From: an uncultured Candidatus Saccharibacteria bacterium
GTDB lineage: Bacteria > Patescibacteriota > UBA1384 > JACPKC01
Assembly: GCA_964423885.1 (NCBI GenBank)
Contig: CAYRGD010000002.1
Location: 18,128 to 82,127, forward strand
Reading direction: 5' to 3'
Length of the DNA: 64,000 bases
Shown here: in pieces, positions 19,259 through 24,952 of the stretch
How positions within the stretch are numbered: the first letter of the stretch is position 1
Layout: every line of letters starts with the position of its first letter
Program-made: the position numbers and the translations under genes
The notes under the pieces: generated by a model
Told to the model about the DNA's origin: nothing
Databases searched by the model: none
The model's input: the letters and a program-made list of their open reading frames with translations, nothing else

Positions 19259-19624
19259 ATGGCTTCTGAATTGCAGGAACTAACACGGCGGATCACCGCG
19301 TTCCGTGACGCGCGGGACTGGAAACAGTTCCACAACCCCAAAGACCTAGCGTTATCGTTAGTGCTAGAAGCCGCCGAGGTGATGGAGCACTTCCAGTGGA
19401 AGTCACCGGACGAAATCGCAGACTACGTACAATCAAACAAAGAGGATATTGCCGAGGAGCTGGCTGACACGCTCTACTGGACGCTGCTGCTCGCACACGA
19501 TCTGGATATCGACCTGGCCGACGCTTTTTCGCGCAAGATGGCGAAGAACGATGCAAAGTATCCTGCCGATCAAGCCAAGGGGCGGCACGATAAATATACG
19601 GCGTACCGTCGATCCAAGATTTGA
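19259..19624 (+). CDS. MazG-like all-alpha nucleotide pyrophosphohydrolase
   Basis: 121 aa. EExxE and ELADxLYW motifs of the MazG/NTP-PPase fold (LEAAEVMEHFQW...EELADTLYWTLLLAHDLDIDL). Intermediate GC (~54%). Its stop overlaps the RBS/start region of mod. Confidence 0.7.
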   Translation: MASELQELTRRITAFRDARDWKQFHNPKDLALSLVLEAAEVMEHFQWKSPDEIADYVQSNKEDIAEELADTLYWTLLLAHDLDIDLADAFSRKMAKNDAKYPADQAKGRHDKYTAYRRSKI

Positions 19625-19635
19625 GGAGTCTCAAC

Positions 19636-21537
19636 ATGCAGAACGATGAACTAGGGCATCTGAGCGGCGAGTCTTGGTTGCCACAGCATGAGCTTACTAA
19701 GGAGCTGAAAGAAAAATTCCCAGGAACGTTTTCGGAAAATAAGGTTGATTGCAAAAAGCTCAAGCAAGAGTTGGGTGAGGAGTTTGATGATGCCCCAGAG
19801 CGTTACGGTTTAAGTTGGGCAGGAAAGCAAAACGTTTTTAACGTTATCCAAGAACCAACGACGAAAACACTAAAGGTTGATCGCGATGAATCGGTTGACT
19901 TTGACACAAGTCAGAATCTGTTTATCGAGGGCGATAACCTAGAAGTGCTCAAAGTTTTGCAGCGCTCGTACTACGGCAAAATAAAAATGATTTATATTGA
20001 TCCGCCGTACAATACGGGCAAGGATTTCATCTACTCAGATAAATGGCAACAATCACGTGGGGAGTACGAGCAGGAAGCTGGTATACGAAATGCGGACGGC
20101 AATGTGCATGAAGTAAGTGGCTTGCGGCAAAATACCCGCGACAGCGGTCATTTTCATAGCAACTGGCTCAATATGATGTATCCGCGTCTTTACCTTGCCC
20201 GCAATTTATTGCGACAAGATGGCGTGATCTTCGTCTCGATTGATGATAACGAAGTGCATAATTTGCGCATGATTATGAACGAGATTTTTGGAGAAGAGAA
20301 TTTCATTGACTGTTTGGTTTGGAAGAAACGGTATGGAGGTGGTTCGAAGGAAAAATACTTTGTAACCGTTCATGAATATATTCTGGTTTACGCAAGGGAC
20401 TTAAATAATATCCTTGATATTGAAGTGCCACTGAGCCAAGAGTCCATTGACCGTTATTACACCGAAAAAGACGATCAATTCGAAAAACGGGGCCCTTTTA
20501 GAACCCACCCCTTGGAAGCAACGAGAAGTATGGGAGATCGCCCTAATTTGATTTTTCCAATCAAGGCTCCAGATGGAACAAATATTCTTCCGGAGCGACA
20601 ATGGCTTTGGTCTAAAGAAAGAGTCGCAGAAGCCCAAGATGGGGGTGAGATAAAATTTTATAAGGCTCAAGGTGTTTGGAAAGTTTCCACTAAACAATAC
20701 CTGAAAGATGCTAATGGAAATCTCAGAAATGGGAAAATGCAATCATTAATAGACGGTATATATGGACAGTATGGCACAAATGAGATCATTGAATTAATGC
20801 AAAATGCACAAGTTTTTCCATTTTCAAAACCCACCAAACTAATAGAAGGCTTACTTTCTGCTAGCTCAAGTTCTAACGATATGATATTAGATTTCTTTGC
20901 TGGTTCAGGATCCGCAGCGCATGCTGCCGAGCAATTGAATGCCCGGGACGGCGGTAATCGAAAATGGATTGCAGTACAGTTGGCAGAAGAAGTCGATGAT
21001 ACGAGCGAAGCCAAGAAAGCCGGCTTCAAGAATATTGCCCAACTTTCACGCGAACGAATTCGTCGAGCTGGCAAGAAAATCAGGGGAAATTATAAAGACA
21101 ATATCAAGAAACGAAAAACCCCAATTGATCTTGGATTCAAGGCTTTAAAGCTCGAAGAGACCAACTTTAAGATTTGGGATTCAAGCGTTCGCGACAAGAA
21201 ACAACTTGAGCATCAAATGAAAGCGATGCTGAATGTTATTCGAGACGACGCAGATGAAGGGGATTTGCTGCTTGAATTGATGCTGAAAAGCGGCATTGAG
21301 CCAACAGAAAAACAAGAGAAAGTTGAAACCGAAAGCGGTGAATTTTACCGAATCGGATTGGGAGAGCTTATTATTTGCCTGGCTGACAAAGTCAGTGAAA
21401 AGTTATTTTCTGACATCGTCAACCAAAAACCATCTAAAGTCATATTCTTAGAAAGAGCTTTGCTCCAAAATGATGTGCTTAAATCCAACGTTTTACTTTC
21501 TGCTGAAAAGCTCAACCTAGAAATCAGGATTGTTTAG
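19636..21537 (+). CDS. mod: Type III restriction-modification system methyltransferase (Mod), N6-adenine, beta class
   Basis: IYIDPPYNTG (motif IV DPPY) precedes FFAGSGSAAHAA (motif I FxGxG), the beta-class order. ~630 aa is typical of Mod. GAGGAG RBS before the ATG at 19636. Confidence 0.9.
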   Translation: MQNDELGHLSGESWLPQHELTKELKEKFPGTFSENKVDCKKLKQELGEEFDDAPERYGLSWAGKQNVFNVIQEPTTKTLKVDRDESVDFDTSQNLFIEGDNLEVLKVLQRSYYGKIKMIYIDPPYNTGKDFIYSDKWQQSRGEYEQEAGIRNADGNVHEVSGLRQNTRDSGHFHSNWLNMMYPRLYLARNLLRQDGVIFVSIDDNEVHNLRMIMNEIFGEENFIDCLVWKKRYGGGSKEKYFVTVHEYILVYARDLNNILDIEVPLSQESIDRYYTEKDDQFEKRGPFRTHPLEATRSMGDRPNLIFPIKAPDGTNILPERQWLWSKERVAEAQDGGEIKFYKAQGVWKVSTKQYLKDANGNLRNGKMQSLIDGIYGQYGTNEIIELMQNAQVFPFSKPTKLIEGLLSASSSSNDMILDFFAGSGSAAHAAEQLNARDGGNRKWIAVQLAEEVDDTSEAKKAGFKNIAQLSRERIRRAGKKIRGNYKDNIKKRKTPIDLGFKALKLEETNFKIWDSSVRDKKQLEHQMKAMLNVIRDDADEGDLLLELMLKSGIEPTEKQEKVETESGEFYRIGLGELIICLADKVSEKLFSDIVNQKPSKVIFLERALLQNDVLKSNVLLSAEKLNLEIRIV

Positions 21538-22247
21538 TGCCTGTAAATTATCAACAAAAATTTCTAGATAGTATGGGTGAGGTGGATAAATTGGCATCCA
21601 CGCCCGATCTCATTAGGCAATTTGCCGTGGATGTACTTGTAAAATCTTTGGAGACGCCCGGAATCACCCATTCCGTAGCCAGTGCAATTCGGAACGCAAA
21701 AACTGCGTTGGAAAACATTAGAGATCAATCGATAGCAAATAGATATAGTGCCATCTATTCACAGATGTGCGTATTGGCGTCCTCCGCACTCGAGGTGACA
21801 GTAAAAGAATATTTTGAGAATTTAGCTTTTCATTCTGCCAACTTAAACAAATCTAATCTGAGCGACCTAAAAATTACCCTGAGGGAAGTTGTGGAAAACG
21901 ATCTGAGATTTGGAGGCAAACTCGGAAAGTTAATTCTTGATAAAGACAACTCAATAAATTTTCAGGATCTCGGTTCAATTAAAAGAGTTTTTGAAAAATA
22001 CTTCGAAAGAAAAATAGTTAGATTTGATAGCGAATTGGCGAAGAAGGCAAATTTTTATCTTCAAGCAAGGCATGTACTGGTTCATAAAGGCGGGGTAGTT
22101 GATCAGTCATTCCTGGACTCTAATTCTAAGTATCAATCAAATATCAAGAATTACGCTTTAGGGGAGCGCATTAAGTTAGACGTAACTGATTGGGTGGATA
22201 TTCGGGCAAGTTTTCTTCACATCATAGAAAGTGTGGTGGCAAGATGA
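21537..22247 (+). CDS. hypothetical all-alpha protein embedded between mod and res; candidate HEPN-like ribonuclease (R-x4-H motif RHVLVH near the C-terminus)
   Basis: 236 aa, same low GC as mod/res. GTG start overlaps the mod stop by 1 nt, and its TGA overlaps the res ATG (ATGA). Predicted helical throughout. The only conserved-looking motif is QARHVLVHKGG, which fits the HEPN R[NHQ]xxxH pattern. Confidence 0.6.
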   Translation: MPVNYQQKFLDSMGEVDKLASTPDLIRQFAVDVLVKSLETPGITHSVASAIRNAKTALENIRDQSIANRYSAIYSQMCVLASSALEVTVKEYFENLAFHSANLNKSNLSDLKITLREVVENDLRFGGKLGKLILDKDNSINFQDLGSIKRVFEKYFERKIVRFDSELAKKANFYLQARHVLVHKGGVVDQSFLDSNSKYQSNIKNYALGERIKLDVTDWVDIRASFLHIIESVVAR

Positions 22248-24952
22248 AGCTTCGATTTGATGCCAACCAGAACTATCAACTAGATGCTATTCAATCGGTT
22301 GTCGATTTATTTGAAGGCCAATTACTTCAGAGTGATAATCTTTCTGTAACAAAATCAAAGATATATCGTAGTGATTCGCGACAGACAGCGTTGGTTGAGG
22401 AGACTGCTGCAGCAAATAATCGATCAATCGATGTTGAACAGCTCTACCGAAATACACACAATATTCAAAAGCGGAATAACATTTCTCAGGACTATTGGTT
22501 GCCGGAATGGGATGAAGAGGGTTGGAATCAAGAAAAAATCTTTGAGGTAAAGCGATCATTTGAGAAGCACTTCACGGTCGAAATGGAAACGGGTACCGGA
22601 AAAACGTATGTGTATCTTCGTACAATCCACGAACTCTATAAAACGTATGGTTTCAAAAAATTTATTGTCGTTGTTCCGAGTGTTGCGATCAAAGAGGGGG
22701 TGCTAAAGAACTTAGAAATTACGCGGGAGCACTTTGCTCAACTGTACGGTAATCCTTCGCTCGATTGGTACGAGTGGAATTCAAAAAAGCGAGGCCAGGC
22801 CCGACAATTTGCAACCAACGATAGCTTGCAAATTATGGTTATCAATATCGATTCGTTTACGCGAGCGGAGAACATTATTAATCAGCAATCGGATTACGGC
22901 ACGCCGATTCAGTTTATTACAGCCACCAATCCAATTGTGATTGTCGATGAACCGCAGAACATGGAGACCGATACGCGGAAGGCTGCAATTGAATCACTCA
23001 ATCCGCTTTGTACACTTCGCTATTCGGCAACCCATAAAAATGAATATAACCTGCTGTATAAGCTCGATCCCGTGAAGGCGTACGATCTTGGCTTGGTGAA
23101 GAAGGTTGAGGTTGACTCAGTTGTTTCGGAGAATGCATACAATACTGCGTACATCAACGTAAAAAAGATTGCCAGGAAGGGTAAAAGTGCCTTGATTGCA
23201 CATGTCGAGGTAGATAAAGATGACGCAGCTGGTTTGCAACGTAAAGAGCTGAAGCTCGAAGTCGAAGATGACTTAGCTGAGATTACCGGACGCCAGATTT
23301 ACGAAGACTATGTTGTTACGAGGATTAGCTTGGAAGAAAAGTGCATCGAGTTTTCGAATGGTAAAGAATTTTGTATTGGCGAGATGCGAGAAGATCTGCG
23401 CGATGAAGTGGTGAAGTTCCAGATTGAACGAACGATAGAAAACCATTTTGAGAAAGAGAAGCGATTGCAACCGCTAGGAATTAAGGTGCTCTCCCTATTC
23501 TTTCTTGATCGAGTGGCAAATTACCGCATCCATTCAGCAGATGGCAACCAAAAAGGTAAGTTCGCAATGTGGTTTGAGGAAGCGTACGAGAGGATCAGAG
23601 CAAAACCGCAATTTGCAGGTGTGCTAGAGCACTCGGCTGATCAAGTGCACAATGGGTATTTCTCAAAGGATAGACGCGGAAATGTTAGTGACACATCTGG
23701 CACAGCCAGGGCTGATGACGATACTTATGGGCTCATTATGAAGGACAAGGAACGTTTGTTGAGTTTGAACGAGCCACTGCGATTCATTTTTAGTCATTCG
23801 GCGTTGCGCGAGGGTTGGGATAATCCAAACGTCTTTCAAATCTGTACGCTCAATGAGACGCACGAGGATATAAAAAAGCGTCAAGAAATCGGTCGAGGCA
23901 TGCGTTTGCCAGTTAATGCTAATGGCGAGCGCGTGTTTGATGAAAACGTCAATATCCTGACCGTTATTGCAAATGAAAGCTATGAAGACTTTGCATGCCA
24001 TCTTCAGGCTGAGATTCAGGATGAAACAGGTGTCGTTTTTGCGAGTAATCGAATTAAGGATAAGAGAAAGCGGCGGACTGCGGCATTGAAAAAGAACTAT
24101 CAGCTTGATGAGAATTTTCAAGAACTATGGAGCCGAATCGACAAAAAAACTCGCTACCATGTGACGTTCGATTCTCAGGACTTAGTACGTAAAACGTGCG
24201 AAATGCTGAGCGACGTAATTATTCGAAAAGCAAAGGTAGTAAGTACGAAGGCATTGCTTAACATGGACGAAGGCGGCATTGCGACCGAGGTAAGATCAAC
24301 TGCGGTACGGCGAGATGACGGTACGCAAAAACAACTTCCTATTCCGGATGTATTGGGGAAGATTCAGCAACATACAAAGTTAACGCGAGCGACGATATTT
24401 TCGATATTAGATCGGTCTGGAATGGTAGAAAAAATTTTGGTGAATCCTCAGCAAGTTATTGACGAAGTGACTAGAGTGATTAATCAAGTAATGAAAGCAT
24501 TGATGGTCGACGGTATTAAATATGAGCGCTTAGATGGTGAAGTATGGGAGCTGCAACGCTTTAAGGATGAGGAACTAGAAAGTTATTTAGAAAATCTTGT
24601 TGAGGTGCAAAAACAAGAAAAGACGCTATATGACCATATCCTTGTAGATTCAGACGTCGAGCGCTCTTTCGCTCATGAGTGTGAAGCTCGTGATGATGTG
24701 AGGTTTTACTTCAAGTTGCCGAGTTGGTTCAAAATCGATACGCCACTTGGAAGCTACAACCCCGATTGGGCGCTAGTGTTTGAGAATGATGAACGAATAT
24801 ATTTTGTCGCCGAAACGAAGGGCACTAGTGATTCATCTCGTATTTCTGAGATTGAGCGATTGAAAATTAAGAGCGGTCGGAAGCACTTTGAAGTGCTGGA
24901 CGGCGTTGAATTCAAGGCGCCAGTTGAGAATCTGTCTCAAGTAGTAGATTGA
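22244..24952 (+). CDS. res: Type III restriction enzyme Res subunit (SF2 helicase plus C-terminal PD-(D/E)xK nuclease)
   Basis: Helicase motif I-like (TGTGKT), motif II (IVIDEPQN), and a C-terminal PDW...VAETKG nuclease motif. ~900 aa. ATGA-coupled to the upstream gene. Confidence 0.9.
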   Translation: MKLRFDANQNYQLDAIQSVVDLFEGQLLQSDNLSVTKSKIYRSDSRQTALVEETAAANNRSIDVEQLYRNTHNIQKRNNISQDYWLPEWDEEGWNQEKIFEVKRSFEKHFTVEMETGTGKTYVYLRTIHELYKTYGFKKFIVVVPSVAIKEGVLKNLEITREHFAQLYGNPSLDWYEWNSKKRGQARQFATNDSLQIMVINIDSFTRAENIINQQSDYGTPIQFITATNPIVIVDEPQNMETDTRKAAIESLNPLCTLRYSATHKNEYNLLYKLDPVKAYDLGLVKKVEVDSVVSENAYNTAYINVKKIARKGKSALIAHVEVDKDDAAGLQRKELKLEVEDDLAEITGRQIYEDYVVTRISLEEKCIEFSNGKEFCIGEMREDLRDEVVKFQIERTIENHFEKEKRLQPLGIKVLSLFFLDRVANYRIHSADGNQKGKFAMWFEEAYERIRAKPQFAGVLEHSADQVHNGYFSKDRRGNVSDTSGTARADDDTYGLIMKDKERLLSLNEPLRFIFSHSALREGWDNPNVFQICTLNETHEDIKKRQEIGRGMRLPVNANGERVFDENVNILTVIANESYEDFACHLQAEIQDETGVVFASNRIKDKRKRRTAALKKNYQLDENFQELWSRIDKKTRYHVTFDSQDLVRKTCEMLSDVIIRKAKVVSTKALLNMDEGGIATEVRSTAVRRDDGTQKQLPIPDVLGKIQQHTKLTRATIFSILDRSGMVEKILVNPQQVIDEVTRVINQVMKALMVDGIKYERLDGEVWELQRFKDEELESYLENLVEVQKQEKTLYDHILVDSDVERSFAHECEARDDVRFYFKLPSWFKIDTPLGSYNPDWALVFENDERIYFVAETKGTSDSSRISEIERLKIKSGRKHFEVLDGVEFKAPVENLSQVVD

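Follow-up and report, generated by a model that had tools for sequence, protein, structure and literature searches.

A predicted solo HEPN ribonuclease gene embedded between mod and res in an acquired Type III restriction-modification operon of Patescibacteria

In a window of 64 kb (the whole stretch of DNA analysed here), the mod and res genes of a Type III restriction-modification (R-M) operon are separated by a third gene, referred to below as X. Sequence comparison and structural modelling indicate that X is a conserved protein whose fold is HEPN-like and whose Rx4H motif is intact and invariant, and together they make it probable that X is a solo HEPN endoribonuclease, encoded by an embedded accessory defence gene within an acquired Type III R-M operon. 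Its most likely role, on these comparisons, would be abortive infection by means of RNase activity, with X expressed alongside the R-M system. Since one X subfamily is found together with unrelated partner genes, X is also most likely an autonomous module and not an obligate R-M subunit.

Results

X is translationally coupled to both genes of an acquired Type III operon

The operon that houses X carries Mod and Res together, as is characteristic of Type III R-M systems, and its catalytic motifs remain legible (DPPY, FxGxG, GTGKT, DEPQ and D...ETK). Mod was identified by the Pfam model N6_N4_Mtase (1.5e-37) and the PADLOC model MTase_III (2.7e-187), its gene call lying in locus L023, and Res by Pfam ResIII (1.5e-16) and RE_endonuc (2.5e-37) and by PADLOC REase_III (2.2e-279); the NCBIfam type III endonuclease model also matched Res at 3.2e-101, under that model's cut-off. 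The features of the region, all on the forward strand, are as follows.

19259..19624, + strand: MazG-like gene, 11 nt upstream of mod (Pfam MazG-like, 8.7e-16)
19636..21537, + strand: mod, Type III DNA methyltransferase, 633 aa from the ATG at 19636, with DPPY and FxGxG motifs (Pfam, PADLOC)
21535..21539, + strand: TAGTG junction, in which the mod stop TAG and the X start GTG have one base in common (sequence reading)
21537..22247, + strand: X, the embedded third gene, encoding a 236-aa solo HEPN-domain protein by prediction (ORF list)
21792..21806, + strand: E-x3-K motif, codons E86-V-T-V-K90, in predicted helix 72-96, the equivalent of HEPN helix 2
21957..21971, + strand: second conserved motif, codons N141-F-Q-D-L145, in the insert between core helices
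22068..22085, + strand: Rx4H predicted catalytic motif, codons R178-H-V-L-V-H183, at the C-terminal end of helix 166-183
22244..22247, + strand: ATGA junction, the res ATG lying over the X stop TGA (sequence reading)
22244..24952, + strand: res, Type III restriction subunit, 902 aa, with an SF2 helicase and a C-terminal PD-(D/E)xK endonuclease (Pfam, PADLOC)

The original prediction held that X is translationally coupled to both of its neighbours and shares the low GC content of the island, and both statements were borne out. The mod stop codon (21535-21537) and the GTG start of X (21537-21539) overlap by 1 nt, and the X stop codon (22245-22247) overlaps the res start codon (22244-22246). An AGGA sequence at 21526-21529, 8 nt upstream of the GTG, is the likely ribosome-binding site of X, and the GTG is the sole start that retains Tyr5, a residue kept in 27 of the 28 close homologues; the next available start is Met13. 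Scans for promoters and terminators gave scores no higher than shuffled background, and so do not indicate an internal promoter or terminator.

GC content is 0.39 in X, 0.42 in mod and 0.43 in res, as against 0.62 in the flanking DUF2779 gene, 0.64 in the flanking Dus gene and 0.62-0.65 in the surrounding Patescibacteria genome, so that the low-GC island comprises exactly mod-X-res. This is a horizontally acquired operon. Direct or inverted repeats were sought at the ends of the island and not found, and the 64-kb window contains no tRNA genes. The MazG-like gene is intermediate in composition (GC 0.54) and a GGAG sequence lies ahead of the mod ATG; it is possibly co-transcribed with mod, its membership of the unit being uncertain. 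The flanking Dus gene is closest to Moraniibacteriota proteins and the host itself is therefore a high-GC Patescibacterium; the same gene rules out transfer of the island from Saccharibacteria into an actinobacterial host.

X belongs to an unannotated family of 782 clusters with an invariant Rx4H motif

A phmmer search identified 82 homologues of X, and an exhaustive profile search extended the family to 782 representative clusters, all of which are labelled 'hypothetical' in public data. The AlphaFold 2 model of X has a pLDDT of 91.3 and consists of a single, all-helical domain of 12 helices, as the original prediction had anticipated; this model confidence, together with the conservation of the family, rules out a chance open reading frame. 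In the model, a long insert (residues 97-165) precedes helix 166-183, which bears the Rx4H motif. The all-alpha up-down bundle, the insert between core helices 2 and 3 and the motif at the end of helix 3, ahead of the loop to helix 4, together correspond to the HEPN fold, and the placement of insert and motif agrees with the published anatomy of HEPN domains (PMC3710099).

In X this motif reads Q176-A-R178-H179-V-L-V-H183-K-G-G. R178 and H183 are invariant in all 28 close relatives and in all 92 members of a diverse set, with identities to X down to about 20%, where they form the sole invariant columns. The position after the arginine is also polar throughout the diverse set (H in 87 and N in 5 of the 92), in agreement with the definition of the HEPN motif as Rx4-6H with a polar residue (N, D or H) following the R (PMC3710099). 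The predicted motif was thus present, although it is not the only conserved element, as had been supposed: Q76 and S83 are likewise strongly conserved, as is the N141-L145 motif of the insert (F142 in 88, Q143 in 91 and D/N144 in 87 of the 92). In addition, E86 is found in 26 and K/R90 in 25 of the 28 close relatives, but E is present in only 35 of the 92 across the broad family; this acidic helix-2 residue (E-x3-[KR]) is optional across HEPN families (PMC3710099).

Profile searches, named in the original prediction as a check on the HEPN assignment, favoured it at the level of the family more than at that of X itself. HEPN_RiboL-PSP (PF18735) was the sole recurrent Pfam match, detected in 21 of the 92 relatives at E<0.01; the best of these (1.5e-7) would correspond to about 32 bits, as estimated by scaling. 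X itself matched this model over residues 54-186 with 19.7 bits (E 8.7e-4), short of the gathering threshold of 28.4. Taken with the invariant R and H, the polar residue beside the arginine and the location of the motif where a core helix ends, this match upholds the proposed HEPN-like R-x4-H assignment, and the X family is, in our judgement, probably a divergent branch, yet to be named, of the RiboL-PSP-HEPN clade, itself distantly related to AbiD/AbiF (Anantharaman et al. 2013).

Other searches were less informative. PADLOC, NCBIfam and PHROGs yielded no usable match to X. PDB sequences, searched with X alone and again with its family profile, gave nothing above noise (Langya virus G protein at E 0.11, designed proteins), and Foldseek found nothing in the PDB at E<0.2. 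In BFVD, the structure search matched a single siphovirus protein that is itself uncharacterised (E 5e-4) and was uninformative. When the X family profile was aligned by hhalign with the single neighbouring DUF4145 and Abi_C proteins of Saccharibacteria, the alignments were not significant and showed no direct link to those HEPN families.

The mod-res junction is a recurrent embedding slot

The original prediction took it that a Type III operon normally contains no gene besides mod and res, an assumption that comparison across related systems did not support. The slot between mod and res is occupied in about 4-5 of 19 plasmid lineages with a related Res, where it contains GmrSD, RhuM or YhcG nuclease genes, and in all Saccharibacteria relatives, where it contains variable cassettes that include whole CBASS-like and Abi cassettes; DUF4145 and Abi_C genes share the mod-res interval with X in Saccharibacteria. 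The mod-res junction is a general, recurrent embedding slot in the Type III clade to which the operon belongs. In 5 of 10 related plasmid Type III systems mod and res are directly adjacent, and X is therefore accessory.

These data bear on whether X might act without catalysis, either controlling res expression much as C proteins do in Type II systems, or using a HEPN domain that binds nucleic acid or nucleotide to tune the R-M enzyme. Non-catalytic HEPN domains have typically lost Rx4-6H (PMC3710099), whereas here R and H are the sole invariant residues in 92 relatives; moreover, neither Pfam nor the AlphaFold 2 model revealed a helix-turn-helix or other DNA-binding domain in X, and half of the related Type III systems have no gene in the slot. 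We regard such a role as very unlikely. A specificity factor or C-protein-like controller, which the original prediction had offered as an alternative, finds no support and was rejected on the lack of a DNA-binding domain, the invariant catalytic motif and the absence of the gene from related systems.

Relatives of X accompany unrelated defence effectors

Close relatives of X are found in Patescibacteria only, as a tight subfamily of their own. The recurrence between mod and res that the original prediction had proposed as a check was observed: X is embedded in Type III operons, directly upstream of res, in about 45 Saccharibacteria loci, a count that may be inflated by many of these loci representing one ancestral arrangement. 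In all but one of 45 Type III loci (44 of 45), the distance from X to res lies between -4 and +8 nt. Further relatives lie upstream of Type I hsdR in 4-5 loci, the order hsdM-hsdS-X-hsdR being seen in L025, L029, L030, L067 and L073, with gaps to the downstream gene of -1, +11 and +25 nt in three Type I loci.

The family is not confined to R-M operons. A single X cluster (at least 60% identity) has members upstream of PIN_8 (4 loci, with a gap of +14 nt before PIN_8), of an OLD-like ATPase-TOPRIM gene (1), of Type I hsdR (2) and of others, and relatives also adjoin a TIR gene and DUF8370. Non-embedded relatives adjoin PIN_8, OLD-like, TIR and DpnI genes, and more distant ones occur in non-R-M islands. 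No relatives were found on viral contigs or on the plasmids searched.

Might X then be a HEPN toxin that stabilises the mobile R-M island through post-segregational killing, with no role in phage defence? The three genes do form an acquired low-GC island, relatives occur in islands containing integrase or toxin-antitoxin genes, and the structural matches include the HEPN toxins of HEPN-MNT pairs (5yep, 7ae2, 8xdj). However, no MNT or other antitoxin gene adjoins X, either in the window or in its Type I and Type III settings, and the neighbours of its relatives are overwhelmingly anti-phage effectors (PIN_8, OLD, TIR, SMODS-SLATT and GmrSD-type). Type III R-M systems, moreover, do not to our knowledge count among the classic addiction modules. 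We therefore consider such a toxin very unlikely, and an antitoxin-paired toxin of the HEPN-MNT kind was rejected, an MNT gene being absent nearby.

A strict guard of the PrrC type would have X held latent on Res (or Mod2Res) and freed as an active RNase when phage anti-restriction disables the Type III enzyme. X always stands directly before a translocase-nuclease gene with overlap of start and stop (Type III res in 44 of 45 loci), and its Type I hsdR relatives share the gene order of hsdM-hsdS-prrC-hsdR. The identities between the window and Saccharibacteria, 41% for X, 45% for Mod and 53% for Res, also show the three diverging together. HEPN domains are linked or fused to the nuclease and helicase subunits of R-M systems and not to methylases, and the guard rationale itself was proposed earlier (PMC3710099). 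Against this, the one cluster that fronts PIN_8, OLD-like, hsdR and other genes, and the adjacency to TIR and DUF8370, would require a series of unrelated partners all to restrain one small protein, which is unlikely; X lacks the ABC-ATPase regulatory domain that controls PrrC, and its distant relatives reside in non-R-M islands. On balance we think a strict guard unlikely. Still more doubtful is the specific proposal that makes X the first guardian of any Type III R-M system: a minimal HEPN RNase, lacking an ATPase, that would dock on the SF2 translocase-nuclease subunit (Res, or HsdR in the Type I relatives) and become active once that subunit is altered by a phage inhibitor or by stalled translocation. 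If true, a cassette of three genes would provide Patescibacteria, with their reduced genomes, with two layers of defence.

Discussion

The embedded, autonomous RNase that we favour would be made together with Mod and Res, and its dimer would pair two Rx4H motifs as in other HEPN RNases. It may remain inactive until an infection cue and then cut RNA (tRNA, rRNA or mRNA) in a metal-free reaction that leaves 2',3'-cyclic phosphate ends, halting translation. X could in this way supply a second, RNA-directed layer of defence, acting through growth arrest or abortive infection once DNA restriction fails, and embedding would ensure that X is expressed and transferred along with the R-M system. The 64-kb window encodes neither an antitoxin nor any obvious inhibitory partner for X.

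Patescibacteria, with their tiny genomes, are regarded as having few defence systems; the X operon points to a compact, multi-layered immunity on one operon. The analysis assigns a proposed function, that of an Rx4H HEPN RNase, to an unannotated family of 782 clusters. In practice it provides a short list of genes that are candidates for defence, as well as a three-gene construct for testing R-M gating of solo HEPN proteins.

The original prediction implied that the arrangement was new. R-M-linked HEPN genes with a PrrC-like rationale were, however, described in 2013 (Anantharaman 2013, PMC3710099), and defence genes embedded in immune operons in 2024 (Payne 2024). The concept of a HEPN gene in an R-M operon is thus already published, and X is a new example and not a new principle. 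Published surveys of embedding dealt with Hma, BREX, DISARM and Type I R-M (Payne et al. 2024), and X extends the idea of embedded defence genes to Type III R-M, which lay outside them.

Comparison with known systems

One close parallel is the anticodon nuclease PrrC, from the Type Ic EcoprrI locus (hsdM-hsdS-prrC-hsdR). As is predicted for X, PrrC has a HEPN-type RNase domain with Rx4-6H; its gene likewise lies within an R-M operon, immediately ahead of the gene for the R subunit, and an RNA-level, second-line role is plausible for both. The positional analogy drawn in the original prediction is in fact stronger than first claimed, X relatives filling the exact hsdS-hsdR slot and keeping the order of the prr locus. 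The two differ in that the N-terminal ABC-ATPase of PrrC senses nucleotides and mediates latency, whereas Pfam, NCBIfam and PADLOC detect no P-loop or ATPase domain in X, which accordingly lacks the fusion of an N-terminal ABC/Rad50-like NTPase to a C-terminal HEPN nuclease that characterises PrrC and RloC. Furthermore, there is no detectable sequence similarity between PrrC and X, and X lies in a Type III operon, with its subfamily also occurring outside R-M systems.

With RiboL-PSP-HEPN (PF18735), the only Pfam model matched by X and its relatives, X has the conserved Rx4H in common, although the founding members of that family are L-PSP endoribonuclease fusions or lie in ParB operons and X is in neither setting (PMC3710099). 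Linkage to R-M operons is known for at least 16 HEPN clades (PMC3710099). The solo HEPN genes of such operons (AbiJ/Abi_C solos, DUF4145, AbiU2 and AbiA-CTD) resemble X in being small, in carrying an intact Rx4-6H and in lying on the nuclease/helicase side of the operon (PMC3710099), but X belongs to a different HEPN family.

Finally, X can be compared with genes recognised through 'guilt by embedding', such as the HEPN protein HEC-08, BrxU/GmrSD and TgvAB in Type I R-M (Payne et al. 2024; Vibrio VPI-2 study). No PADLOC-DB v2 model of these embedded defence genes matched X, and HEC-08 is a DUF3644-type HEPN protein with zinc-finger domains, whereas X is of another family. HEC-08 defends alone and requires the histidine of its Rx4-6H motif (Payne et al. 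2024). Like X, these genes lie on the same strand between genes of a multi-gene immune system and have homologues that are not embedded, and X occupies the position that defines an embedded defence gene in the sense of Payne et al. 2024.

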